A DNA stretch of 33,567 nucleotides, taken from a virus. The DNA lies in IMG/VR virus record IMGVR_UViG_3300029452_000005; one strand, written 5' to 3'. Within the stretch, counting starts at the first letter, position 1; every line of letters begins with the position of its first letter. Shown one piece after another: positions 12,631 through 33,567 of the stretch. The notes beneath the pieces are model-generated. The model did not search any database. It had not been told where the DNA came from and saw nothing but the letters and a program-made list of their open reading frames with translations. The translations under genes were made by a program, and so were the position numbers.

Positions 12631-12975
12631 ATGCTATACAACAAAATCGAGGAATTAATGCGAAAAACAGGCGTATCAGCATATCAAATTTCAAAAGATA
12701 CCAAAATTCCGCAAAGTGCATTTTCACGTTGGAAGAAAGGAGAAAGCAATCCTAGTTTAAAAAATATTAAAATATTATCGGAATATTTCGGTGTTCCAAT
12801 AGGTTATTTTACCGACGGCGTAGAGGGAGCGCCTAAAGTCAAAAAGCAAGAAATTTCTATTGATTTAAAGAAAATTACGGATAATGCTTTGATTTGTTAT
12901 TATGGTGATCGTGAATTAACGGCATCGCAAAAAGCTAAAATATCCAAAGTATTAAAAGCGGTATTAGACGATTAA
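12631..12975 (+). CDS. cI-like repressor, XRE HTH domain without a peptidase domain
   Basis: The segment MRKTGVSAYQISKDTKIPQSAFSRWKKGESNPSLKNIKILSEYFGV matches HTH_3. It is the first gene of the plus-strand lysogeny operon and is followed by an ImmA-like gene. Confidence 0.8.
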   Translation: MLYNKIEELMRKTGVSAYQISKDTKIPQSAFSRWKKGESNPSLKNIKILSEYFGVPIGYFTDGVEGAPKVKKQEISIDLKKITDNALICYYGDRELTASQKAKISKVLKAVLDD

Positions 12976-12999: not shown

Positions 13000-13344
13000 A
13001 TGTTCAATATGTGTTCTTTTGTCTTAGATTTGATTAATTCGCACGGCTCAAACGAACCGCGCCACATAGCAAGTAAATTAAATATTAAAGTTATATATAA
13101 ACCATTGCCGGCTTGCGTTAGCGGCGTAATGATTAAACCGGAGATTAAAAAGGCTATTGTTATTAATAGCCGGTTAAGTAGGCGCCAGCAGCGCATGGCG
13201 CTTGCGCATCAATTAGGGCATATATTCCTTCATAAGGATTATGATTTATTTAAGGAAATAGATAACGATTTACGCATAAAGCTGGAACATGATGCGGATA
13301 CATTCGCGCATATATTGTTAAATAAAGGGGTATACCATGAGTAA
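13000..13344 (+). CDS. ImmA/IrrE-family metallopeptidase-like protein with an HQxxH variant motif
   Basis: The segment QQRMALAHQLGHIFLH...LEHDADTFAHILL aligns with the ImmA pattern tlaHElgHi.lh...E.eAn.FA..lL. The catalytic Glu codon reads CAA (Gln) at 13210-13212. Confidence 0.75.
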   Translation: MFNMCSFVLDLINSHGSNEPRHIASKLNIKVIYKPLPACVSGVMIKPEIKKAIVINSRLSRRQQRMALAHQLGHIFLHKDYDLFKEIDNDLRIKLEHDADTFAHILLNKGVYHE

Positions 13345-13549
13345 AAAAGATGCAATTAATGTAGCCTTTTATCAAAGTATCCTGTACCTTATTATTGGTA
13401 TGATATTAGGCCTTATGTCTTGGGAAGAACACCGATATATTTTATTGCTTTTAGTAGTTGCCTTAACTGTTGGCGCTCATTACATAGCAAGTTATTCATT
13501 AAAGGAATTAGACGATGCAATGCAATATAACCATAAGAAAAAAGGATAA
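13337..13549 (+). CDS. Small two-TM membrane protein in the lysogeny operon
   Basis: Two hydrophobic helices are present (ILYLIIGMILGLM and ILLLLVVALTVGAHYI). The ATG overlaps the ImmA-like stop. Confidence 0.55.
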   Translation: MSKKDAINVAFYQSILYLIIGMILGLMSWEEHRYILLLLVVALTVGAHYIASYSLKELDDAMQYNHKKKG

Positions 13550-14567
13550 AGGGTATCAATGTATCGTTTCATACAAGGACGGTAACCGCTGGCGCCAGAA
13601 ATCTAAACAGGGTTTTGAAACGCAAAAAGCGGCAAAAATCCACGCCCAAACGATCATTGATAAACTAAAAAAGACTATCACCGCAACCGATGATAGTCTT
13701 AGAAATATAACTCTTATTGATTTTTTTAACATTTATATGAAAGAGAATAAGCCGCGTACATTTAATACATTACAGGCCTATACACGTACATTTGATATAT
13801 TTAAGCCTATATTTAACGAAAAAATAGCGAATATAACGCCGTATCAAGTTAAAAGGGTATTGAATGATAGTTTATATTCAACTACCACAAAAAACCTTGC
13901 TTTGGGTACAATTCAGCGTTTATTTAACTATGCGGCGAACCAATACAAAATAATTCCTACAAACGAATTGAAAACAATACCACGTTTTAAGGATAATGAA
14001 CCTACAAAAATAAAGGTATTATCAGATACAGAAATAGAAACATTTTTAAAAGCATTAAAACCTAAAAATTATAAATACTATGTTATATTTTCTATTGCTG
14101 CTTATACCGGCATGAGATATGGCGAAATCATTGGCCTTACTTGGGGAAATGTCGATTTGAATAACAATATTATTAATGTAGTGCAGCAATTCGGGGCGAT
14201 TGATTACAATAAATATGCCTTGAAACCGTTGAAATCTAAAAATAGTTATAGGCAACTACCTATACCGCCAATATTAACCAATATTCTAAAAGAATACAAA
14301 GAAACATGTTCGACTGAACGCCTTTTCAATAATAAAGTTAGCGCCAGCTGGGGCGCATCACGAATAATGAAAAGATTTTTACCAGATAATTCTATTCATG
14401 ATCTACGCCATACATACGCAACTAAATTATTAGCAAATGGCGTAGACATAAAAACCGTATCCGCCCTATTAGGTGATAGTATACAAACGGTCTTAATAAC
14501 ATATGTTCATTTTTCGGACGATATGCGACTAAAGGCAGCTGACAAAGTTGCCAATATTTTTGGTTAA
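13515..14567 (+). CDS. int: Tyrosine recombinase / phage integrase
   Basis: The N-terminus looks like an arm-binding domain (ITIRKKDKGYQCIVSYKDGNRWRQKSKQGF). The catalytic residues are in context: TGMRYGEI (Arg), HDLRHT (HxxR) and LITYVHF (Tyr). Confidence 0.95.
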   Translation: MQCNITIRKKDKGYQCIVSYKDGNRWRQKSKQGFETQKAAKIHAQTIIDKLKKTITATDDSLRNITLIDFFNIYMKENKPRTFNTLQAYTRTFDIFKPIFNEKIANITPYQVKRVLNDSLYSTTTKNLALGTIQRLFNYAANQYKIIPTNELKTIPRFKDNEPTKIKVLSDTEIETFLKALKPKNYKYYVIFSIAAYTGMRYGEIIGLTWGNVDLNNNIINVVQQFGAIDYNKYALKPLKSKNSYRQLPIPPILTNILKEYKETCSTERLFNNKVSASWGASRIMKRFLPDNSIHDLRHTYATKLLANGVDIKTVSALLGDSIQTVLITYVHFSDDMRLKAADKVANIFG

Positions 14568-16793: not shown

Positions 16794-19700
16794 TTATTTA
16801 ACCTTACCTAAACCATAAACGCTGCGCGCTATATTGGCTTTTCTCATATTAATTTTGTCTAATTGTTCCCTCTTTTGTTCGCCGCTCATGCGTTCATTAT
16901 TAATGATCGCCTTAGATGCTTTGTTCAAACCTTTTAGGCTATCACTTGCATTTTTGAGTTTTGCGAATTCCTTGGCATCGTATCCTTCCGGCCGTTGCCC
17001 TGTTAATTTGAATTCATTATGTAGCTTTTCTTGCTCCTTATAATCATCATATACCCTCTGTACACTATCCGATGATTGATAAGGCGCCACCGTGAACCGT
17101 CTTATGCCCGGTGCTTCATACCATTTTTTAGATGCATTATTTTCTTTTGCGCCAGAAATAGCATCAATAATGCTCAAACCGGAACCAGCAAGCCCGCCGC
17201 CATACCCTCTTATTGTATTGTCTACAATATATGGCGAAACGTTAAATTTATCACCTACGAATTTTGCTAATTCGCTTGTATTAGCGCCGTATTGTAGGCG
17301 TGCCGGTAAATTTTCCTGTGATTGTGGAATGAGATTACGTTGTCTAAACAATGATTTATTAGTCATAGCTTCAAAGGCTGGTATCATTGCAGTAGGCATA
17401 AGGCTAGGTGTCATGCTATCAATAACACGTTCACCGAAACCGTCAAACCCAACGCTTTTGCGCCCGTTTTTCTTATCGTCCATGTATTGTAACATTCTTT
17501 CAAACGCCGTGCCGAATAAAATACCAGCTTCAAATGGCTTAGGAATACGATACATATTTTCTTTCCCCGGAATAATCCAGAATGTATCTTTTTCCCATTG
17601 CGGTATTTCTTGATATCGCGGATCATCTTTATTTATATTCCATAACATAATACTAGGAAGCGTGATATAAAGAAACGCCTTAATTGTTGTACCGCGCGGG
17701 TCTTCAATAAATGTACGCGCCATTTTGTCTGTGCCTTGAATTGCAGCATTGAAAAAGGCTATTATTTGATTTAATTTCTTTGTATGCGTACCTCTACGGC
17801 TGAAATCTAGCGTTATATCACGGCTTTCAAGTGCTGCTTCGCGTGTAGATAAAGGCGCCCTTTCCTTACTGAACAAACGGTTGCCAATACTTGTATAACC
17901 TTTTTTGGCGTTATCAAATTCAGCCAACCGCGTTGCCATTTCTGTTGCTTCGCTCATAGCACGCAATGCTTCAATAGGGTTTTTAATTAACTTCGTGAAT
18001 TTGCTTTCACGTCTAACAATATCGCGAACTTTACCGCCTAAATAATCACGGTCTAACGAAACCATTGCCGCATGTGCTGCGCCGGATTTTTGGTATTCCC
18101 AGAATAAATCGCCTTTTTTTAGGTATAACGCTAGTCCCTTAAAGGTATCAACAATAGGAATAAAACCATGTTTTGAGTAAACTGTAGCGCCTATCATATC
18201 GCGTACAGGGTTACTCAAAATAAATTCTAATGACAATGTAGCGCCAGCACGTAACCAGCTTGCCGGATAAGACAATATTTTAACAACCATGTTTGATTGT
18301 TCCTTATCTAACATGCGCATAGTTTGCACTAATTCCGGCGTTGTTTCATACGTTGTCTTTTTGCCGTTTTTCCAAACATTAAAGGTATTATCTGTTGCTG
18401 CTTTGTTCCCGTGTACACGTTCGACAATTCTCCCCATTCCCGGTTTATCGGCAAGTTTTGCGAATGTACGGCCAACGTGATTGCGTTCTATTGCATTAAC
18501 AAATTGGAAGGTATTCTTTATGATACTTTCCAACGGATCAATAATATCGCGCGTACTACCTTTAAAACGTTTAACCGGACTAGATACATCAATAAAGCCT
18601 TTACTACCAGATAAGAACGATTGCATGCCAACGTCTGACATTTCACGGAAGAATGGAATATAATGCGGGTACATTTTACGCATTGCGTGATATGCCTTAA
18701 CCGTCAACATTCCTTCTTTCACTAGCATTTGCAATAGATAATCTTGATATTTATAAATTTCTTTAGCCGCCTTTCGGAAATGTTCATTGCCCGCATGTTT
18801 ACCTACAACGGCAGCATCGTCTAAATAATCAAACGTTGCTTTTTGTTTATTGCGGTGTAAATCTAAATCATGCAATGCTACAAGGTATGCGGAAAAATCT
18901 TTATGTTCCTTTTTGCTAATAGTATTTACAATTTCTTCAAGTCCTTTTATGCCACGTTCTGGTGCACCGTGTTCAAGAAGTGCTTCAGCCTTACCGGCCC
19001 AGCCACGCGCTAACCACGCTTGAAAGAACACGTTATCTTCAAACGCTATTTTTTCGCCCGTTTCTTTTTCAATTTGATCCATTAATTCTTTTAACGGGTT
19101 TAACTCATCAACAAACGCGGTATATGCTTCGCTTTTTGCTTTGGCTATTGCATCTTTAACTTCGCCACGTTTAACCGCATCAATAGCTTGGCTAACTTTC
19201 CCCTTACTTTCAAAAGAAATGCTCCCTTTGATGCGTTCCGCGCCGCCTTGACGGTGCCATTCATGAACCAGCTTCGATAATTTATTGGTGATGCCGTTTA
19301 ATTCCGGTTCTTTTACAATCGCTTCCGTAAAGTGTTTATAGAATTCTGGGAATTCCCGTTTTGCTTTGGTGCGATCACTTACATAGTCCTTAAAGAATTC
19401 TGCGTAACCTTCGCCGCGTATACCGTCAATACCTAATTTATTGTATGCTTTACCGAAACGGTCTTGAATAACGCCGTTAAATTCGGTATTGAACCGTGCA
19501 TCTTTACTGAAACCGAAATAATTATCTACATAATGCCCCAATTCATGCATGATAACCGGAATTTCGCCATAATTACCGCTACGAATTACATCGGTTTTAG
19601 TATTATACCAGCCGCGTACATTATCACGGCCCAAACGGCCACTTTTAACGCGTTGATTAAATAGGTTATTTACCGCATCAAGAATTTCCTTGCGTGTAAC

Positions 19701-22052
19701 GCTTCGGCCTAACCGCTCTACTTCATCAATGCCAGTATGTGGCGTTTCGTTACTTTTAACGCTATATTGTAGCGGTTCCGTAGGTCTAACGCCTTTACTT
19801 TCTAAATAACGATTTGCCATTGCTTCGTTGCCGTCAAAGGCTTTCACCATAGCTTCGTGTACTTGCTCATGCGTTGCATTGTCTAATAGCTGGCTAGGTT
19901 GCTGCTCGTATTTGCTCACGCCACCTTCTACCGGTTCCGCTTGTAACGTTTTAAGTTCTTGCGTATCGGTGATTAATTCGGCAGCACGTTCACGTCTAAC
20001 ATGTTCCATGTATTCATGGTTCAATGCTTCAACTGGTACGTCTAACTTTTCTGATAATTTGACTTTTACCGTTTCCAATTCCGCTTTTGGAATATCCGGT
20101 TTTGTTGCCCGGTTCAAGTCTTGCAAAATTTCTGTATTAGAATGTACTTTGTTTTCTAATTCAGTAAATCGTGTTTCAGATGCATCATTTTTTAATTCGT
20201 TTATGATAGTTTCTTTTGCTTTTTGCGGTAAATCGTCAAGCGCATTTCGTAAACTTTCGTTTGGTGCATCTTCTTCATACCTAAATTGAGTACTTGCATC
20301 GTTTTCAAGTGCTTTTTCTTCAAATTTAGGTTTTTCACCCTCTACAAAGTCAGTATTTATGCGGTCTTTCGGTTGAAATTCATTTATTTCGCCTGTACGG
20401 GCCGTTTCGCCTTCGCCTTGATAGTTTATACCTAAATCGTCAGTTTTAACCTGTTTTTTATCGGTATTTTCTACAAAACTGTTTAAATCGGTATGTGTTT
20501 CTTCGCCGCTTACTGGTTTTTCGTTTTCTATAAACTCATCTTTAAACGGTTGTTCATTACCTCTATAGTTAGGGTCTAGCGTACTATCTTTAAACGATGT
20601 ATTATCACGTGGCCTATTTTCATATTTACCATAATTGCCGTCGAATGTTTCTTTAGCAATTTGCGCCCGTACATCATCATGTGCAACTGCTGGGTCTGGT
20701 CTTTCATAATTTTTTCGTATGATAACGGCCATTTCTTCCGGTGTTGCATCTGGGCGCGCGCGCATCGCTTCAAGTGCAGCGCTTTCGGTATTGTGTAATT
20801 CCCATACGCTGAAATCAACTTGCGTTCTCCAATCCCACGGATCTAATCCGCGACTTTCCGCAAATTTTAACAAACCTTTTTCGCCGTTCAATCTGTCGCC
20901 AGTAAATTGAACCAAACCACGGGAACCGTACCCGTCGCCACTTGTAACGGTCGTATTGAAACTACTTTCGGCTCCGATATTACCAGTCATGGCAGCCGCT
21001 TCAACGTCGCTTAACCCATTTTGACGATATCGGTTATATATATCCGCTTGGATATTACCGGTTTCACCTTCCATAGGTTGACCGTTCAAACCACCTTCGG
21101 AGTATTCGCGCGGTTCTACTGCTTTAGGTTCTTCCGGTACGGGTACATCATCAAACGCGTTATACATTACGCCTTCTTCCATTGTTGGCGCATCTTTTGT
21201 AAAACGTTCGCCAATATCTTCAAAGGCATTAGATGCTTTTTCTTTGATGTGTTCCGCTGCATGTCCTACACGCTCACCGATTGCCCCGGATACCTTTTTA
21301 GGTGTTGCCCCGTGTATCATGGCAGCCGGTAAAAATACGTCGCCCCATAAATTAGTAGGGTTCATGGCTATATTTTTAGCAAATTCCCCCGGGTCGTCAA
21401 TTAAGCGTTCTACTGGCTCGGCCACAGGGTCTACTATAAGATTTTTCGCCGTAGCTACATATTTATTCCCTAAAATTCCGTCTGGTGCCGTTCCGTCATT
21501 TTCTGCGGTTGCATTGGCGTTATACATATCAACCGTATCACTTGCAATCGTAGGCGCGGCAAGAACGCCAGCAGCTATTCGCACCGGTGGTGGAACATAC
21601 GGAGTAATTGCTAGATATCCAGCCGGCTTACCAACTGCGGCGTTATAGGTTTCAACGTGCGCTTTACCTAACCCCGGTGTAGCATATTCGTCGATAAACT
21701 CCCCATTATCATCAAATTTAGAAAAGTTATCGCCATTAGCATTAATCGCATTGGCAGCACTTTTAGAATACTCATTACCTAGATTGTTCGCTTTGTTTAC
21801 TACATCATCTTTCCAGTTGGTTAACGTATTGCCTACATTGTCGTTAATTTCTTTGCCGGTTTTATCAATCCATTCAATATTATTTTTAACACCATTAGCA
21901 ACATATTCGGCATTATTTTTAACGCTATCCCAAAACGTAGGCTTGGGCGCGTTGCCTACATCATAACCGTATTCGGTTGTTATATCTTCAAAGGCGTTAC
22001 CGTTTCCAGCTGCCTTGCCGTATTGGCTTGTAATATCATCAAACGCACCCAT
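16794..22052 (-). CDS. 1752-aa virion-associated polyvalent protein (ejection / internal-protein candidate) with a tail-lysozyme domain and an HELGH zincin motif
   Basis: Residues of about 335-455 (20688-21050) read AAAMTGNIGAESSFN...SRGLVQFTGDRL...QVDFSVWEL, matching the phage tail lysozyme (Phage_lysozyme2) pattern. IPVIMHELGHYVDNYFG lies at residues 831-847 (HELGH at 19533-19547). An acidic linker spans residues of about 480-760. The C-terminal region of about 850 aa is uncharacterised. It is the last structural gene before lysis. Confidence 0.8.
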   Translation of the reverse strand: MGAFDDITSQYGKAAGNGNAFEDITTEYGYDVGNAPKPTFWDSVKNNAEYVANGVKNNIEWIDKTGKEINDNVGNTLTNWKDDVVNKANNLGNEYSKSAANAINANGDNFSKFDDNGEFIDEYATPGLGKAHVETYNAAVGKPAGYLAITPYVPPPVRIAAGVLAAPTIASDTVDMYNANATAENDGTAPDGILGNKYVATAKNLIVDPVAEPVERLIDDPGEFAKNIAMNPTNLWGDVFLPAAMIHGATPKKVSGAIGERVGHAAEHIKEKASNAFEDIGERFTKDAPTMEEGVMYNAFDDVPVPEEPKAVEPREYSEGGLNGQPMEGETGNIQADIYNRYRQNGLSDVEAAAMTGNIGAESSFNTTVTSGDGYGSRGLVQFTGDRLNGEKGLLKFAESRGLDPWDWRTQVDFSVWELHNTESAALEAMRARPDATPEEMAVIIRKNYERPDPAVAHDDVRAQIAKETFDGNYGKYENRPRDNTSFKDSTLDPNYRGNEQPFKDEFIENEKPVSGEETHTDLNSFVENTDKKQVKTDDLGINYQGEGETARTGEINEFQPKDRINTDFVEGEKPKFEEKALENDASTQFRYEEDAPNESLRNALDDLPQKAKETIINELKNDASETRFTELENKVHSNTEILQDLNRATKPDIPKAELETVKVKLSEKLDVPVEALNHEYMEHVRRERAAELITDTQELKTLQAEPVEGGVSKYEQQPSQLLDNATHEQVHEAMVKAFDGNEAMANRYLESKGVRPTEPLQYSVKSNETPHTGIDEVERLGRSVTRKEILDAVNNLFNQRVKSGRLGRDNVRGWYNTKTDVIRSGNYGEIPVIMHELGHYVDNYFGFSKDARFNTEFNGVIQDRFGKAYNKLGIDGIRGEGYAEFFKDYVSDRTKAKREFPEFYKHFTEAIVKEPELNGITNKLSKLVHEWHRQGGAERIKGSISFESKGKVSQAIDAVKRGEVKDAIAKAKSEAYTAFVDELNPLKELMDQIEKETGEKIAFEDNVFFQAWLARGWAGKAEALLEHGAPERGIKGLEEIVNTISKKEHKDFSAYLVALHDLDLHRNKQKATFDYLDDAAVVGKHAGNEHFRKAAKEIYKYQDYLLQMLVKEGMLTVKAYHAMRKMYPHYIPFFREMSDVGMQSFLSGSKGFIDVSSPVKRFKGSTRDIIDPLESIIKNTFQFVNAIERNHVGRTFAKLADKPGMGRIVERVHGNKAATDNTFNVWKNGKKTTYETTPELVQTMRMLDKEQSNMVVKILSYPASWLRAGATLSLEFILSNPVRDMIGATVYSKHGFIPIVDTFKGLALYLKKGDLFWEYQKSGAAHAAMVSLDRDYLGGKVRDIVRRESKFTKLIKNPIEALRAMSEATEMATRLAEFDNAKKGYTSIGNRLFSKERAPLSTREAALESRDITLDFSRRGTHTKKLNQIIAFFNAAIQGTDKMARTFIEDPRGTTIKAFLYITLPSIMLWNINKDDPRYQEIPQWEKDTFWIIPGKENMYRIPKPFEAGILFGTAFERMLQYMDDKKNGRKSVGFDGFGERVIDSMTPSLMPTAMIPAFEAMTNKSLFRQRNLIPQSQENLPARLQYGANTSELAKFVGDKFNVSPYIVDNTIRGYGGGLAGSGLSIIDAISGAKENNASKKWYEAPGIRRFTVAPYQSSDSVQRVYDDYKEQEKLHNEFKLTGQRPEGYDAKEFAKLKNASDSLKGLNKASKAIINNERMSGEQKREQLDKINMRKANIARSVYGLGKVK

Positions 22053-22069: not shown

Positions 22070-23731
22070 TTAATAAGACTTTAACCACGATTTATATTGA
22101 CCGTATCCGGCCGCATCAAGTTCCGCCGCAATCTGATCATCACTCCAGCCTTGCGCTGAAAGTTCATTCATTCGCTTGGAAATTGCTGCTTGTTCTTCGC
22201 TTGAATAAGTAGGTTGCCGTTTAACCGTTGGCGTTCCAGCAGCACCACCACCGCCAGCAGTAGGCGCACCACTTAACGCACTTTGTAATTGCCCGTAATA
22301 AGGACTTTCAGTTTCCGCTTTATCTGGGTTAGCTTTCACCCATGCGGTATGCTGCGCGGAAAGTGTACGTAATACTTGCGCATTATATCCGCTAGTGCCG
22401 GACTGTGTAGCCGTTGCCGGTTTAACGTGAGTACCTACATATTTCATGCTGCCGTCTGTTCCAACAATATACGTTTTACCGTCTGGCATAACTTTAATGT
22501 TTTTAGCCCCGAAATTACCGATATTTTTCATTTGGCCGTCTGGTGTCATAACAATAACTTGACCGTTCGCAAATTGTTTTGTTTCAACCTTGCCATAACC
22601 GCCCATATCTTGAATAGTACCGTCGCCCATGTTGTATCGTACAATATGGCCGTTTTGCGCACTACTGAATTTATAATCCGGTTTATCCAACGCCGCAATA
22701 GAATTCAAGTTATTCATATCAATAGTACCAGCGCCAATCTTACCGGCAAGGTAGTTGTATCTTGCAACGGCTGGCGCCAATCCTTTAACCCGTTTTGTGT
22801 TATAGGTATCTACAACCGGGTTGCCGTCTTTATCCTGTGTAAATACAAGATTGTTCATGATTTGCTGGCGCATTGGTTCAAGCACTTTTTCTTGATATTC
22901 GTTGACTTGCTGCATGTACATATTATTAACGTCAGTTTGATATTGTTCGCTGGCTAACCCTTGCGCCGTCTTAAAATCAAAACCGGCTTTAACTAGGGCC
23001 AACGTATTGGCCCCTAGTTGTTTACGTGCTTCGCTTGTTACGCTTGCTTTATCTGGTATAGAGTATTGGCCCGGCGCTTTATCCGCATCAGTATTACCAT
23101 TTTCTACCGATTTGGGCGCCCCATGAAAAGGTACGTTCGCCCGTTGTTGCATCATTTCTTGATATGATTGCGGTACCCCTGTATTAATACCAGTATTATT
23201 TAGATTTTGAAAATTCCATAACCCCGTGTTTTGTTGCGGTTGCGCTGGCGCCGCTGGCATTTGTGGTGCTTGCGCTGCCTGTGCTTGCAACTGCTTTTGT
23301 AATGTAGGGCTTGGCTCATTCATATAAGCGTTAAAGCGTTGATCAGTAACAGGGTTAGCCGGTGCATCTGTGTTAGCTTGCATCGGTTGTGCTGGTGCGG
23401 CTGGATTTTGACCGCCCCATAAACCGATATTATTCTTTTGCATCAAGTTATTGGCAAATGTGTTATTGGAATTAGATAATAACTGGTTGATTTGACCGGC
23501 GCTATTAGGTTGTTGCATACCCATTCCCGCCATGCGGTTATTATTATCCACAATTTGCGGCGTGTTCGGGTCTTGTTCGCCGCCAGCACCACCGCCACCG
23601 CCTAGCATTGCTTGATAGCCTTTAGCCATTTTGTTATTCTGCAATGCACCTAAACGATGTGAGAAATATTGACCAGCTAATTCGCCTAACGCCGCCCATG
23701 GTTCAAAATCTTTTACGTAGATAACGCCCAT
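22070..23731 (-). CDS. 553-aa N/Q/P/A-rich putative ejection (internal virion) protein
   Basis: The N-terminal half is low-complexity (poly-Gly, PQMPAAPAQPQQN, runs of N and Q). The C-terminal half has repeated DG-containing beta-hairpin-like units (VMTPDGQMKNIG, VMPDGKTYIVGTDGSMKYVG). The function is assigned by position only. Confidence 0.6.
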   Translation of the reverse strand: MGVIYVKDFEPWAALGELAGQYFSHRLGALQNNKMAKGYQAMLGGGGGAGGEQDPNTPQIVDNNNRMAGMGMQQPNSAGQINQLLSNSNNTFANNLMQKNNIGLWGGQNPAAPAQPMQANTDAPANPVTDQRFNAYMNEPSPTLQKQLQAQAAQAPQMPAAPAQPQQNTGLWNFQNLNNTGINTGVPQSYQEMMQQRANVPFHGAPKSVENGNTDADKAPGQYSIPDKASVTSEARKQLGANTLALVKAGFDFKTAQGLASEQYQTDVNNMYMQQVNEYQEKVLEPMRQQIMNNLVFTQDKDGNPVVDTYNTKRVKGLAPAVARYNYLAGKIGAGTIDMNNLNSIAALDKPDYKFSSAQNGHIVRYNMGDGTIQDMGGYGKVETKQFANGQVIVMTPDGQMKNIGNFGAKNIKVMPDGKTYIVGTDGSMKYVGTHVKPATATQSGTSGYNAQVLRTLSAQHTAWVKANPDKAETESPYYGQLQSALSGAPTAGGGGAAGTPTVKRQPTYSSEEQAAISKRMNELSAQGWSDDQIAAELDAAGYGQYKSWLKSY

Positions 23732-23735
23732 TGTG

Positions 23736-25295
23736 TTATTCCTCTACTTTCTTATTATCTTCGGTTGCTTCCTCTACTGGTTCATCTTTCTTGCTGGATT
23801 TTTTAGTTGTTTTTTTAGCTGGCTTTTCTTCCGCTGGCGCTTCTTCCGCTGCATCTGCAATAGCTTTCAATTCATCTTCGTTGATACCTTCGGCCATAAT
23901 ACCGTTAGCATAGAATAAATTATCGCCAGTACATTGCAATTCGTATACGTGTTCAGTATTGCCAGTTGCTTCGCTTAATGTAACCGGTTCATAAGCATTA
24001 ACCGTCATAATAACTTCGCCAACTACCAATTCACTAACTAATTTTAAGCCTTCCGGAGTTAATACCTTTTCTGTGCCTGTGGTTGTTACGCCAAAAGATA
24101 CAGTTTCAAGGCGATGTGTTTCTTTTTCGCCCATATCATGCAATGCAATTACATCATTAACCGCACCCAACGTGATAACAGTATCACCATTTACAAACGT
24201 TTCAATAACCTTGCCACCTTCTGGTGTTGCAATTTCAGTACCCGCTACAAAACAAAAACCTTTCATAAGTCCTCCAAAGAAACCGCCAGAACCTTGCTTA
24301 ACCATTGTTTGTGCTGGTTGTGCTAGTCCATAGCGTAATGACATAAATCTGTTAAGTAATTCTTCTTGATCCGCGTTATTTAACTGGCTCATAGAGTAGT
24401 AATCTTTGGCCGGTTGAATAGCTGCGCTTTGTGTTGTTGCGCCTGTATTAATAGGGTTTTGCGCTAACCCTTCGCGTTGACCTACCAAACCCGCTGCGGT
24501 GCCGGCGTTATTCATCTGATTTGCATAACCTTGGTTCATTAGATTTGCTTGATTGATGATGCCGTTTTGGTTGTTATTGTAGGTATTACCCCATAACCCC
24601 ATTTTTGCACCGATACCGCTTAAATTATTATTAAGCGCTTGCGTATTAAGTGCAGCCGCTTGGCCTAAATCATTTGAATATTGTGCCGCAAGTGTATTAG
24701 ATGCGTTCTTGCTAATATCATTTAATGCATTATCTGTAATAGATGAATTCACAATGCCGCGACTTGCTAGGCCAGAAACTGCATTGCCTACAGTTGCCTG
24801 TAAATCATTGTTTAACGCTTGCCGTCTAGCATCTGCATAGCCTGTTGGTAGTTGGCCGTTTGTGATGCTATTCATTGCGTTTTGATTATTAAGCAATGCG
24901 CCGTTATATTCGTTAGCCAGTTGGCTTGCGCCGTTGTTCATAGTATCAACGCTTGCCGCTAACTGATTTGCATACCGCGTGTTATCAGTTAAATTCTTGG
25001 CGCCGGCCGTAGAAACTTGATTTTGTAACGCGCCGATTGCATTTTGATTGCCGCGGTTAGCGCCTAAATACGAATTATACATATTACCGTATTCTGGCGT
25101 TATCACATTATTCAAGGCCGCATCGCCCATACCTTGCAAGGTGTTGGCGCTTCGATTGGTGTTATTAATCCAATCCATTTGGCCTTGTAATAGTTGCTTT
25201 TCGTCGGCCGTTGCCGTAGGCAATTTCGCATCAATGCTGCTTACCTTCGACTTTTTACCGCCGCCGCCAAATAATTGCAAGTCAAATTTAAACAT
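23736..25295 (-). CDS. 519-aa N/Q-rich protein with a C-terminal Hint (intein-like) domain and a charged tail; putative ejection protein
   Basis: The N-terminus is MFKFDLQLFGGGG. Residues of about 40-330 are N/Q/A/G-rich. Residues 348-469 read CFVAGTEIATPEG...TGTEKVLTPEGLKLVSELVVGEVI...VYELQCTGDNLFYANGIMAEG, a Hint-fold pattern. The last 50 aa are K/E-rich. Confidence 0.7.
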   Translation of the reverse strand: MFKFDLQLFGGGGKKSKVSSIDAKLPTATADEKQLLQGQMDWINNTNRSANTLQGMGDAALNNVITPEYGNMYNSYLGANRGNQNAIGALQNQVSTAGAKNLTDNTRYANQLAASVDTMNNGASQLANEYNGALLNNQNAMNSITNGQLPTGYADARRQALNNDLQATVGNAVSGLASRGIVNSSITDNALNDISKNASNTLAAQYSNDLGQAAALNTQALNNNLSGIGAKMGLWGNTYNNNQNGIINQANLMNQGYANQMNNAGTAAGLVGQREGLAQNPINTGATTQSAAIQPAKDYYSMSQLNNADQEELLNRFMSLRYGLAQPAQTMVKQGSGGFFGGLMKGFCFVAGTEIATPEGGKVIETFVNGDTVITLGAVNDVIALHDMGEKETHRLETVSFGVTTTGTEKVLTPEGLKLVSELVVGEVIMTVNAYEPVTLSEATGNTEHVYELQCTGDNLFYANGIMAEGINEDELKAIADAAEEAPAEEKPAKKTTKKSSKKDEPVEEATEDNKKVEE

Positions 25296-27456: not shown

Positions 27457-28875
27457 TTAAACCTCTTCATACGTATAATCTAACTGGCGTAACGAAATAG
27501 CGCCCTTTTGAACATTGATTTTAAATTGTACATTACGATTTGCACCGCCGCCAATCTTATACGCCTTCGTGTACTCATTAATATTCATTAATGTTTTGGC
27601 TTCGTATAGCTTTTCATTCGCATAGTAGGTCTTTGTTGCCTTGCTTGAAAAATTAATTGGCTTAGGCTTCTTATTCGATATGCCAATAGTGCCATAACCG
27701 GGAATAAGATTATGCGTTACAAAATTATAGTTCATAATCAACACAAATTGACGTGTCGCCAATCTGTTGCCGCTGATAATTGATGTTTGGATTTGTTTCG
27801 TATCATCTGTATCTATTGTTTCGTCAAGAATACCAATCTTATTTCCGTACGCTATATATACTTCTTTATCCACATTCACCGCATCATTGATGTTATGCGT
27901 GAATTTTCTTGATGTGAAAACGCCCCTTCCGTCCTCATATCGTGGCAAGTAGTGATAGATAAATACCGTATCGCCGTTATATGGTTTAATCCAGATTTGT
28001 TTTCTACTGGATATGTGCCATACCTCGCAATCTTTCGTTATGTACTTCAACAAATAAGAGTTGATATTTAGGCCAGTTTCAAATGGTTGTATTTCTGCAT
28101 AGGTGTTAGTAGGCATGAAAGACATGAACCCTTGATTGCCTAAATAGTAACTACGATCATCAACGCTCACCGTTGCACCGCTACAATAACCGGTAGAGGA
28201 TAAAGGATATACGGTTAAATTCTGCGCATCTGGCGTTCCAATTACTTGATACACGCGCCCGTATTCTTTGTATACGATAATTGCACGTGATAAGAAATCA
28301 ATCGCAATGATGCTGCCTTGGTCTTTATAGCCAACGTCTACATATTGCGCGCTTGATGCATCATTTGAGTTGTGAGTCCATGCGTTGTAGTCGCCAACTG
28401 CCGACCAATTCAACCTATGCGAATGAGTTGATGCAATCAGTACACGGCCGGAATGACTTGATACTATATCACATACAGGACTTTCAATAGTGGATAACTT
28501 ACCAGCACCCGAAATGGCTTGCAATTTATCACCGCTGGCGATGAGAATATCACCACCAAACGCATGATATCTTGGGCGTTCGGTACCATTTAATGTGCCT
28601 AATAGTGTATTACCGCTAAAATCTGTTTCATACAAATTTCGGCCACTAGAAAAGTACCACTTATTACGGTACACATCATGGTATAGCGTTTCTATTGGTA
28701 GTCCAAAATCATACAATATACGAATACCCGGAACGGTACGGAGTGCGTTGTCTGTTCTATCGAATTCGCATTGTTGCGCCTGTGTTAGTGCTTGCACGTC
28801 GATATTTTCCGGCGGGTTGCTCCAATCAAGGCCCAGCCGGAACCCGTTTGTAGTTGCCACCTGTTTAACGCCCAT
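27457..28875 (-). CDS. Tail hub / tail tube protein (P22 gp10-like, tentative)
   Basis: It is 472 aa and follows the two adaptor-sized genes in P22 order. It has a repetitive beta-propeller-like sequence (for example RAIIVYKEYGRVYQVIGTPDAQNLTVYPLSSTGYC). The similarity to gp10 is judged from memory, not computed. Confidence 0.4.
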   Translation of the reverse strand: MGVKQVATTNGFRLGLDWSNPPENIDVQALTQAQQCEFDRTDNALRTVPGIRILYDFGLPIETLYHDVYRNKWYFSSGRNLYETDFSGNTLLGTLNGTERPRYHAFGGDILIASGDKLQAISGAGKLSTIESPVCDIVSSHSGRVLIASTHSHRLNWSAVGDYNAWTHNSNDASSAQYVDVGYKDQGSIIAIDFLSRAIIVYKEYGRVYQVIGTPDAQNLTVYPLSSTGYCSGATVSVDDRSYYLGNQGFMSFMPTNTYAEIQPFETGLNINSYLLKYITKDCEVWHISSRKQIWIKPYNGDTVFIYHYLPRYEDGRGVFTSRKFTHNINDAVNVDKEVYIAYGNKIGILDETIDTDDTKQIQTSIISGNRLATRQFVLIMNYNFVTHNLIPGYGTIGISNKKPKPINFSSKATKTYYANEKLYEAKTLMNINEYTKAYKIGGGANRNVQFKINVQKGAISLRQLDYTYEEV

Positions 28876-32003: not shown

Positions 32004-33567
32004 TTACATAGTGCCTAAATCGTTCATAGGCGGCATAATTTGCGGTGTATTTTGAATGTTTGGTTGTTTACCTTTCAAGGCTAACCGTTCCGCCATGATT
32101 TGTTGTGGTGAAATCTGCACGCCTAATGTTTGTAGGTACATACTTAATGCTTCCGCTGGCATATCATCAAGCGAACCACTTACACGCAATTCTGGTAACG
32201 CTGGTTTTTCTGCCGCTTCTTGCATGCGTTTCTTAACCGTTTCTTTTTCTGGGAAATCCATGAAATCAAGGATAATATCCATAGGAATATCAACGCCGGA
32301 TTTCTTAGCTTCCAATAATTGGTAAAGGTTAGCACGTCTTGCCGTTGCGCTGGCTTGGCTAGTAGTAATTACAATATCAAAATCAAAGGCGGATAGATCA
32401 TATAGTACTTGTTTAATCGGATTGCCTTCCGCATCACGCTGCGGCTGCCCTAGTGCATCAGTTAAAATCTGTTCTTGCATAGGTTGATTTAAACCCGGTG
32501 CAATCTGTACAAATTCCTTTTGCCCGTCGTCGCCCATAATTCGCATTGCTTTTTCTTGGTTGTAGAATTGCGGAATTAACCCCGGCGCGTTCTTTTCACC
32601 CCATAGCAATTTGACAATTTGGCGTTCTGCTTCTTTTGACTGTTCAAAGATACCAGCCGTTTGTACCGTTGTTACAGATTGCCGCAAGTCGATTGCCTTG
32701 CCACTCATAGCGCCAACGCTACCGGATAGACTTTCCGGAGTGATACCGCTAATAGAATAGAAATCATTGCTTGATTGTTGCTCAAGGCTGATATTAATAC
32801 CGCTATCCATTGCCGGCGTACCGTCCATAAAGGAAACGCCCGGCGGTAGGAATATATTTGCGCCCGGTTTTGTACTATCATTCTTGATAGTTTTCTTTAA
32901 TTGTTCCGTGAATTGACCTTGCCAGAATTTCACACCTAAAGATTGTTGATTAACAACGTGCATGCGTTGGCTTCGGTTTTTATTCAATTCCCTTTGTGCG
33001 TCTTTAATATCACGCACTACGCCAGCTGGTTCTAGTTCATCGTCTACCAATTCGCCGGTATAGTAACAATATTCACGCACCAGCGGAAATTTACCATGCT
33101 TATAAGGGCTTTCGCCTTCTTCAAGTAGTACATTATCGGCAAATGTCGCATATCTGATTTTAGTATCTGGAATACTTGTAGGTTTCTTGCCTGTAGCCAA
33201 CAATACAACAAATAGCGGGTTAGTTTCATCAATTAAACCCTCTTTTGTCATGAATACGTTTCGTTTACCGTATTCTTTATACCAATACTGCACTACACGA
33301 ATTTTATTGTAGTTGTTGTTGTACCATAACGCTTCACCGTCTACCGTTTCAACTATGCCGGCTTCCTGTTCGGTATCATCGTATTTATGTTTAAGCGCAT
33401 CAATTTCATTTACTTTTTCCGGATATACTTGTTTTAGTTTAGCGGAGCTTTCCCAGCTATAACGTCCAACATATTGCGCATCGCTTAAATCGTCTTTCTT
33501 ACATTCCGGATCTACAAACGCATCAAACGGAGAAACACGTTCAATTTGAATAGTGCCGTCTAACTTC
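32004..33567 (-). CDS. Portal protein, C-terminal segment (continuation of the ORF starting at 515 on the other contig end)
   Basis: The frame is open from 33567 to the stop at 32004. My translation upstream of the track start is in frame (...DAQYVGRYSWESSAKLKQVYPEKVNEIDALKHKYDDTEQEAGIVETVDGEALWYNNNYNKIRVVQYWYKE...). The M in the track is an internal GTG. Confidence 0.85.
   Translation of the reverse strand, partial: KLDGTIQIERVSPFDAFVDPECKKDDLSDAQYVGRYSWESSAKLKQVYPEKVNEIDALKHKYDDTEQEAGIVETVDGEALWYNNNYNKIRVVQYWYKEYGKRNVFMTKEGLIDETNPLFVVLLATGKKPTSIPDTKIRYATFADNVLLEEGESPYKHGKFPLVREYCYYTGELVDDELEPAGVVRDIKDAQRELNKNRSQRMHVVNQQSLGVKFWQGQFTEQLKKTIKNDSTKPGANIFLPPGVSFMDGTPAMDSGINISLEQQSSNDFYSISGITPESLSGSVGAMSGKAIDLRQSVTTVQTAGIFEQSKEAERQIVKLLWGEKNAPGLIPQFYNQEKAMRIMGDDGQKEFVQIAPGLNQPMQEQILTDALGQPQRDAEGNPIKQVLYDLSAFDFDIVITTSQASATARRANLYQLLEAKKSGVDIPMDIILDFMDFPEKETVKKRMQEAAEKPALPELRVSGSLDDMPAEALSMYLQTLGVQISPQQIMAERLALKGKQPNIQNTPQIMPPMNDLGTM
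33469..33567. repeat. 99-bp terminal overlap identical to bases 1-99 (circular closure of the contig)
   Basis: Direct comparison shows both copies read ACATATTGCGCATCGCTTAAATCG...GTGCCGTCTAACTTC. The overlap lies inside the portal ORF. Confidence 0.9.

Follow-up and report, generated by a model that had tools for sequence, protein, structure and literature searches.

What does a Hint domain do when it sits at the end of a phage protein and no longer carries the residues for protein splicing? The question is raised by a gene in IMG/VR virus record IMGVR_UViG_3300029452_000005, a 33,567-nt stretch of DNA (hereinafter designated the window, to which all coordinates refer) from a temperate P22-like podovirus of Veillonella. 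The gene occupies 23736..25295 (-), stop codon included, and the open reading frame list gives its product as a 519-residue precursor, in which a predicted leader, a helical N-terminal domain (hereinafter designated N-domain), a Gly-rich segment, a Hint domain and a charged tail follow one another. An earlier note, made from the letters of the window, had described the Hint domain as intein-like, unable to splice and embedded in a putative ejection protein. We argue below that the domain is probably a self-removing C-terminal pro-domain, a reading to which we assign a probability of roughly 0.6.

Residues 348-470 form a genuine Hint domain

The Pfam family Hint_2 (PF13403) matches the whole protein with 32 bits and the domain alone with 36 bits, against a cut-off of 28.4, and a phmmer search of the sequences in the PDB matches the gp41-1 mini-intein over residues 352-468. 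A family profile built from 48 diverse relatives and used against the PDB finds gp41-1 (E = 9.5e-17), the C. thermocellum BIL (bacterial intein-like) domain (E = 6.9e-15) and Tetrahymena BIL2 (E = 1e-14). AlphaFold2 predicts an all-beta structure for residues 348-470 with a predicted local distance difference test score (pLDDT) of 80-88, and Foldseek aligns it with more than 40 Hint structures in the PDB at probability 1.00 and template modelling (TM) scores of up to 0.91. The closest solved structure is gp41-1 (TM 0.90, root-mean-square deviation 1.5 Å over 128 columns); Tetrahymena BIL2 is the top Foldseek match (E = 4e-10), and the C. thermocellum BIL domain, DnaB mini-inteins and many others are also matched. 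By fold, profile and nucleophile alike, residues 348-470 (23886..24254 (-)) are a genuine member of the Hint superfamily, of mini-intein size and without an endonuclease. The profile and structure searches that the earlier note had proposed as a check thus uphold its domain call, and the coordinates it gave, 24252-24254 for the Cys348 codon and 23889 for the far end of the domain (Glu469 lies at 23889-23891), are exact.

The rest of the protein is of a different character. In the AlphaFold2 model the N-terminal part is made of long helices at residues 30-62, 67-145, 151-178 and 184-292 (pLDDT 60-80), and residues 283-346 and 479-519 are disordered, with pLDDT below 50 in the tail. The descriptions of the N-terminal part as N/Q-rich and of the tail as K/E-rich also fit: Asn and Gln make up 24% of residues 1-347, and Lys, Glu and Asp 53% of residues 471-519. 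The best-conserved motif of the N-domain, LASRGIVNSS (residues 176-185, 24741..24770 (-)), stands out in both of our alignments: L176, A177, R179, G180, I181, N183, S184 and S185 are invariant in alignment A1, and G180, S184 and S185 are invariant or nearly so in alignment A2, which comprises 48 diverse members. Foldseek matches outside the Hint part (Rad50, F-BAR, EnvC) are generic coiled coils with E of about 0.1 and were disregarded.

The N-domain is joined to the Hint domain through a Gly-rich hydrophobic, glycine-zipper-like segment (residues 335-347, GSGGFFGGLMKGF, 24255..24293 (-)), and the junction reads GSGGFFGGLMKGF followed directly by CFVAGTEIATPEG. The predicted scissile bond lies between Phe347 and Cys348 (24252..24257 (-)), so that the mature protein would end in the Gly-rich segment.

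Splicing residues are replaced and N-terminal reaction residues kept

Alignment of the profile to solved Hint structures places Cys348 at position 1, the nucleophile, as the earlier note had proposed. In block B, which reads TTGTEKVLT, Thr406-Gly-Thr-Glu409 (24069..24080 (-); alignment to 2lwy and 6tmm) keeps the Thr of position B:7 at Thr406, and Glu409 falls on the block-B His (B:10) of both 2lwy and Tetrahymena BIL2. In block F, Val450-Tyr451-Glu452 (23940..23948 (-)) keeps the acidic residue of position F:4, with Glu452 aligned to Asp107 of gp41-1. The block-F Cys of the class-3 WCT motif has been placed at the Glu452-equivalent position in gp41-1 (PMC7664689). Asn459 aligns with the block-F His (F:13) of gp41-1. 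The C-terminal block, VYELQCTGDNLFYANGIMAEG, ends the stretch from Asn459 to Glu469-Gly470 (NLFYANGIMAEG, 23886..23921 (-)), in which alignment to gp41-1 and BIL2 pairs Glu469 with the penultimate His (G:6) and Gly470 with the terminal Asn (G:7, mutated as N143A in 6tmm/6y75). Ile471 comes next, and there is no Cys, Ser or Thr at the +1 position. The replacement of the block-B His by Glu and the ending in Glu-Gly-Ile, both read from the letters in the earlier note, are therefore reproduced by alignment to structures.

The block-B His, the C-terminal Asn/Gln/Asp, the +1 Cys/Ser/Thr and the extein continuity of a class 1 splicing intein are all absent. Because every residue for branch resolution and Asn cyclisation is gone, splicing and C-terminal cleavage by the Hint domain are excluded on the residue equivalences. 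Of the set for the N-terminal reaction, the Cys, the Thr and the acidic residue are retained, and the His is replaced by Glu. These equivalences, and their conservation in the family described below, support the earlier proposal that the domain could at most perform an N-terminal reaction at Cys348. The 519-residue protein has Cys only at 348 and 455 and His only at 386, 394 and 449. None of the three His is conserved beyond the Veillonella clade as an alternative catalytic residue, and a role for the second Cys was likewise rejected, since Cys455 is not conserved beyond that clade.

The nucleophile is invariant in a large family

Searches for relatives return more than 544 proteins when these are clustered at 90%, and 272 clusters when the threshold is 50% identity (E ≤ 1e-3). 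Nearly all lack a name; one is annotated 'MAG TPA: hydrolase [Caudoviricetes sp.]', and the bare name 'Hint' is given to two BFVD entries. We surveyed the best 150 representatives of the 272 clusters, among which the Hint domain is present in 105 and 84 align over the full domain; the residue counts that follow refer to these 84, which are clusters at ≤50% identity. All 84 have Cys at position 1, and 80 have Phe at +2. At position 406 there are 82 Thr and 2 Ser, and at position 452 there are 67 Asp and 15 Glu; position 409, never His, holds Gln in 72 clusters and Glu in the remaining 12. At the C-terminal end of the domain, position 459 is Asn in 70 clusters, position 469 is Glu in 46, Lys in 14, Arg in 5 and Asp in 5, and position 470 is Gly in 77 and never Asn. 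The residue preceding the nucleophile is small or hydrophobic (Ala 40, Phe 23, Met 6, Leu 5). Mean pairwise identity of the Hint domain is only 33%, and the conservation of Cys1, Thr B:7, the Gln/Glu at B:10 and the acidic F:4 is therefore meaningful. The survey of homologues that the earlier note had called for thus finds both the Cys and the substitutions at positions 409 and 470 to be properties of the family. Within the set of 48 diverse members, Pfam Hint_2 is matched by 34 and PT-HINT by 9.

A tblastn search of 50,697 isolated-phage records with the whole protein or with its distant relative P0128 gives no match, and the Hint domain alone finds only terminase inteins in the same records (E ≥ 0.009); no cultured phage in this collection therefore carries the family. 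The N-domain of the 519-residue protein belongs to no family in PHROGs, NCBIfam or Pfam. The 272-cluster family is carried by P22-like and SU10-like podoviruses and is both large and uncharacterised; Veillonella is the single host identified. Prp-type leaders, holins and GH25/Amidase_3 lysins in the relatives examined suggest that its hosts are, more widely, Firmicutes.

The Hint domain is terminal, old and dispensable

The distance from Cys1 to the stop codon is below 150 residues in 81 of 85 clusters, so the protein in effect ends with the Hint domain, after which there are typically 1-10 residues (for example ...FFANGFAVEGWW and ...FANDVAAEGYGD). The K/E/A-rich tail of the window protein (residues 471-519, 23739..23885 (-)), predicted to be disordered and ending in KVEE, is confined to the Veillonella clade, most of the family lacking it, and varies in length and sequence. 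The earlier description of the domain as embedded needs refining, since across the family the Hint domain is the end and the tail is a fast-evolving addition. Most close homologues end in (K)KVEE, and nearly all Veillonella-clade homologues end in KVEE or K-G-E-A (residues 516-519, 23739-23750 (-)), a conserved end that suggests a short docking signal. A few other clades have a HeH/Rho_N-like tail in its place: in P0123 and P0228 the last ~40 residues resemble HeH/Rho_N (Pfam HeH 1e-3, Rho_N 2e-3), a putative DNA-binding module that would stay with the released Hint fragment.

The Gly-rich hydrophobic segment that precedes Cys348 is conserved in kind throughout the family, and about 17 clusters, a count that leaves out P0159 and P0163 (split Hint matches) and P0240 (which looks garbled), have no Hint domain and end in such a segment (...GGLLGGLATGLGAYAAKKF, ...GVGSYYGAKG and ...GGLFSGLMGGLF). 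In the three contigs examined (P0182/L007, P0192/L008 and P0134/L009), the Hint-less genes are complete, synteny is kept and the next gene begins 12 nt downstream. These orthologues stop at the junction and do not continue past the site of Cys348. They thereby mark the end of the functional protein, and the Hint domain can be regarded as an accessory, removable module. Hint-less forms are scattered on a neighbour-joining tree of the N-domain, which would require some 12-15 parsimony changes; the tree is rough, built on low-complexity sequence and indicative only.

Divergence of the Hint domain and divergence of the N-domain are correlated (Spearman 0.60, a value reached by 0 of 500 label permutations), from which we conclude that the fusion, rather than being a mobile element, is old and vertically inherited with repeated losses. 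In a comparison of three Veillonella-phage alleles, the ratio of nonsynonymous to synonymous substitution rates (dN/dS) is 0.11-0.16 in the Hint domain, 0.09 in the N-domain and 0.25-0.53 in the tail. The Hint domain is under purifying selection and the tail is relaxed.

A self-removing C-terminal pro-domain is the favoured reading

The reading that we favour is a Hedgehog- or BIL-like cleavage by hydrolysis at the Phe347-Cys348 bond. Cys348 would attack the carbonyl of Phe347 in an N-to-S acyl shift, the resulting thioester would be hydrolysed, and the helical N-domain, now ending ...GGFFGGLMKGF-COOH, would be released from a fragment made of the Hint domain and the tail. Cys348, Thr406, Glu452 and the Glu or Gln in place of the block-B His would be the residues kept for this first reaction. 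The residues replaced at F:13 (His to Asn), G:6 (His to Glu, Lys or Arg) and G:7 (Asn to Gly) serve only the C-terminal chemistry, which speaks for this reading. Precedents exist: Hh-C goes no further than the N-S acyl shift, cleavage is the main activity of BIL domains, and compensating residues allow several inteins to work in the absence of the block-B His (PMC7664689).

Why such a domain would be kept is the most speculative step. We speculate that it masks a hydrophobic, membrane-active C-terminus in the producing cell, or tethers the protein during assembly and packaging; in the latter case the KVEE tail might be the handle that holds the protein in the procapsid as it assembles.

Several points weigh against hydrolytic cleavage. 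In the N-S acyl shift an important part normally falls to the block-B His, which is here replaced by Glu, and to our knowledge no characterised Hint domain has Gln or Glu at this position, so that catalysis may be slow, conditional or lost. The Hint-less orthologues bear on the dispensability of the domain, not on its removal where it is present. The invariant Cys could in principle serve in metal binding or a redox function. Finally, both what the N-domain does and that it is ejected are read from gene order and one weak PHROG match.

If catalysis were indeed lost, the Hint domain would be a dead enzyme retained as a folded C-terminal plug or docking module, with the portal, the capsid interior or the scaffold as possible partners and the KVEE tail as its handle. 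Old enzyme folds are often reused without catalysis, all three conserved intein His are absent, and the conserved short motif at the end of the tail suggests binding. Against this stand the near-invariance of Cys1, Thr B:7 and the acidic F:4 at about 30% identity, which would be unexpected in a pure binding module, and the fact that the junction with the N-domain is the exact natural end of the Hint-less orthologues. We regard a catalytically dead module as unlikely, though a real contender.

The Phe347 thioester could also be resolved by a nucleophile other than water, as occurs with cholesterol in Hedgehog and with a lysine, giving an isopeptide bond, in BUBL/BIL2. The acceptor, covalently attached to the C-terminus, would then be a lipid, a peptidoglycan amine or another virion protein, and one candidate is the oligoglycine N-terminus GGGGKK that leader removal would expose. 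BIL2, which is among the closest structural matches, conjugates its upstream domain via an isopeptide bond (PMC8616854). The layout of the window protein is Hedgehog-like, with cargo, hydrophobic end and C-terminal Hint domain in this order, and the predicted mature N-terminus is Gly-rich in the family. However, the syntenic Hint-less orthologues end with an ordinary carboxyl group at the equivalent place, so covalent attachment is not essential; there is no extension resembling a sterol-recognition region, and most members end 1-10 residues past the Hint domain. We consider transfer to such a nucleophile decidedly improbable, and rate as a still longer shot the specific proposal that an injected protein is ligated through its thioester C-terminus, independently of ATP, to a membrane lipid, an amine of peptidoglycan or a neighbouring subunit's oligoglycine N-terminus exposed by Prp cleavage. 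Were the latter true, the ejection conduit would be covalently anchored or concatenated.

PT-HINT domains directly precede toxin domains in polymorphic toxins (PMC3482391), and a PT-HINT-like releasing peptidase might free a C-terminal effector in the capsid or in the host, namely the K/E-rich tail here and the HeH/Rho_N-like DNA-binding tail in other clades. The nine PT-HINT matches among the 48 members and the one member with a HeH/Rho_N tail point in this direction. Most members, however, have no C-terminal cargo beyond 1-10 residues, the C-terminal junction offers no Asn, Gln or Asp for C-terminal cleavage, and the tail of the window protein is of low complexity and evolves fast, which together leave this alternative very improbable. 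Toxin release in the PT-HINT style was rejected for want of cargo in most members and of a folded domain after the Hint domain, where the window protein has 49 low-complexity residues.

A decaying, functionless remnant of a mobile mini-intein is scarcely credible and effectively refuted: the closest solved structure is indeed the phage-like mini-intein gp41-1, phage genes often carry inteins and the only tblastn matches in isolated phages are terminase inteins, but the domain shows the low dN/dS given above, keeps its nucleophile over hundreds of lineages, co-diverges with its host protein and is terminal, with neither a C-extein nor a homing endonuclease or trace of one.

A predicted Prp-type leader at the other end

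Cleavage at the Hint junction would not be the only maturation step. The N-terminus, MFKFDLQLF followed by GGGGKK, fits the Prp motif, with Gly rather than Ala at P1', and is the sole Prp-type motif in the window. The cleavage motif of Prp and L27 is MLxx(D/N)LQ(F/L)F'A(S/H)KK (PMC9405229). On this motif fit, residues 1-9 (MFKFDLQLF, 25269..25295 (-)) form a predicted leader that would be cut between F9 and G10. Of 83 family representatives, 43 have the motif and about 25 a (F/Y)-K-G-G variant that follows a longer leader, and several leaderless members start with MGKK... or MSKGG..., exactly at the predicted mature end, which is Gly-rich throughout the family.

Prp trims the capsid and scaffolding proteins of 80alpha, and the motif occurs on further, non-homologous virion proteins (PMC5744158). 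Prps are described as essential in Firmicutes, the phylum that includes Veillonella (PMC9261936), although neither Veillonella nor Negativicutes is mentioned in the study that gives the L27 motif (PMC9405229). In P22, a host protease (OpdA) shortens the ejection protein at the syntenic position, gp7, by 20 residues at the N-terminus, according to its record note. The motif makes it probable that a host Prp protease removes residues 1-9, a step that we infer for Veillonella. Taken with the Hint junction, the leader motif defines a predicted mature protein of about residues 10-347 (24255..25268 (-)), consisting of the N/Q-rich helical domain and the Gly-rich hydrophobic end. The putative ejection protein thus appears to be processed at both ends, N-terminally by a host protease and C-terminally by its built-in Hint domain.

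Gene order suggests an ejection-type protein

A 99-bp exact direct repeat at 1-99 and 33469-33567 of the window indicates a circular assembly and hence a complete genome of ~33.5 kb. The genome encodes an integrase (13515-14567 (+)), a helix-turn-helix repressor (12631-12975 (+)) and an M78 peptidase (13000-13344 (+)), together with TerL, a P22-type portal and a Phage_capsid_3 coat protein. The same phage is found as a prophage of Veillonella parvula, with relatives in NZ_DBFBTX010000005.1: L003 shares 81% identity, and P0014 sits on a scaffold of 730 kb.

The late genes run in the order portal, scaffold, coat, two small genes, genes for proteins of 472, 416, 161 and 138 residues, and the Hint protein, followed by the 553-residue protein, the 1752-residue protein, a holin and a GH25 lysin. 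This order parallels P22 genes 1-8-5-4-10-26-14-7-20-16 and puts the Hint protein at an ejection-protein position. The 472-residue protein (27457-28875 (-)) has a weak, colinear match to P22 gp10 over residues 1-127 (E = 0.003), and the two proteins are of equal length; the match supports P22-like synteny of the tail hub in a phage of a diderm Firmicute.

The next gene (22070..23731 (-)) encodes the G/Q/N-rich protein of 553 residues, which by synteny occupies the P22 gp20 position and is a second putative ejection protein. It matches no family in Pfam, PHROGs or NCBIfam, and its synteny is conserved in L001, L006, L007, L008 and L009. The protein is rich in G, Q, N and A, with a poly-Gly stretch near either end, and in the relatives a gene for 387-553 residues always lies directly after the Hint protein gene. 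At the P22 gp16 position, the 1752-residue polyvalent protein (16794..22052 (-)) contains Phage_lysozyme2 (4e-24, residues 335-471) and LPD38 (7e-43, residues 1477-1648) by Pfam and is probably an ejected protein that cuts peptidoglycan. Its relatives exchange N-terminal modules, and the version in L007 has PBECR3 in place of the lysozyme.

Beyond the P22-like viruses, the distant relative P0138 lies at the equivalent position in an SU10-type podovirus, and the N-domain of another distant relative, P0161, matches phrog_4287 'DNA ejection protein' (E = 9.8e-5). The 519-residue window protein itself has no PHROG match, and hhalign comparison of the family profile with P22 gp7 and gp20 detects no homology (probability ≤1.3%). 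The earlier label of putative ejection protein accordingly gains from the P22-like gene order and the weak P0161 match, but receives no backing from homology to gp7 or gp20. From the gene order and that match, it is reasonable to infer that the 519-residue protein is an internal virion protein of ejection type. In L008, the podovirus with the Hint-less P0192, a diversity-generating retroelement (bAvd and RVT_1; positions 4012-5677 of L008) is set within the tail genes and immediately precedes the block of ejection-protein genes.

Comparison with known Hint and self-processing systems

In layout, the window protein is closest to Hedgehog Hog/Hh-C. In both, the Hint domain is C-terminal to the cargo and has Cys1, a Thr in block B and an acidic residue in block F (PMC7664689); as neither has a C-terminal Asn or a +1 nucleophile, the chemistry would be limited to the N-S acyl shift and to setting free the N-terminal product. 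Unlike Hog/Hh-C, the domain in the window has Gln or Glu for the block-B His across its family, carries no sterol-recognition extension and is viral rather than metazoan. The sequence match to Hh-C is marginal (1at0, E = 0.44 with the family profile).

In sequence, the domain is closer to BIL domains (2lwy). Hint_2 is its best Pfam family, it starts CF..GT and it has no +1 nucleophile; it shares with BIL domains an N-terminal nucleophile, a non-conserved position in the host protein and a presence that varies among orthologues. By contrast, the solved BIL domains keep the block-B His and the C-terminal His-Asn, both gone here, and can cleave at both ends. BIL hosts are secreted or variable bacterial proteins, whereas the host protein here is a putative phage virion protein. 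As judged by residue equivalences, then, the architecture resembles that of Hog and the sequence that of BIL/Hint_2, and the domain differs from both in the replacement of all three conserved His.

Tetrahymena BUBL BIL2 (6y75/6tmm) is a demonstrated case in which the thioester of a Hint domain serves to pass the upstream domain on to another protein. BIL2 differs from the window domain in having the catalytic His69 and a terminal Asn and in sitting between ubiquitin-like domains, and we found no sign of such a transfer reaction here. The cyanophage-like mini-intein gp41-1 (6qaz) shares the compact size and the LFYAN motif of the window domain. Unlike it, gp41-1 splices, has the block-B His, the terminal Asn and the +1 nucleophile, and is inserted in a conserved host protein. 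A functional analogy is offered by the peptidase S74 chaperone domains of phage tailspikes and endosialidases, which are C-terminal and remove themselves after assembly. Their fold and chemistry are unrelated (a Ser-Lys dyad versus a thioester), and they are found in tail fibres rather than in internal proteins.

For the N-terminal step, the predicted removal of the leader by a host protease has counterparts in the capsid and scaffolding proteins of 80alpha (Prp) and in P22 gp7 (OpdA). It differs in having Gly, not Ala, at P1', and the papers examined report no Prp cleavage of an ejection-type protein.

The open-access literature yielded no description of a Hint module in ejection or internal virion proteins, only terminase and helicase inteins and work on polymorphic toxins, and a review of ejection proteins lists no autoprocessing module (PMC8954989). 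The remark in the earlier note that no role had been described for such a module in podovirus ejection proteins agrees with this search.

Two further observations concern Hint domains elsewhere. The metagenome-derived proteins P0177 (1064 residues) and P0222 (955 residues) have an unusual poly-Hint layout, in which three or four fully canonical units (TAEHPF ... FAVHN) are linked head to tail by KGG-C and precede a membrane-associated C-terminal region; except for the Hint domain they are unrelated to the phage family. BFVD holds several other proteins of uncultured phages that pair Hint with non-replicative partners (Fibronectin type III, PASTA or 'putative gp62'), an indication that phage structural or surface proteins may carry Hint modules at their ends more widely.

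For the podoviruses that carry it, the probably self-cleaving Hint tail looks like an undescribed way of maturing ejection-type proteins. How the ejection proteins of short-tailed phages stay harmless, are packaged and are then activated is poorly understood. The family also offers hundreds of natural Hint domains in which all three His are replaced (by Gln/Glu, Asn and Glu/Lys) and the nucleophile is kept, a test of the minimum needed for the acyl shift, and it may be a source of compact N-cleaving tags for protein engineering.

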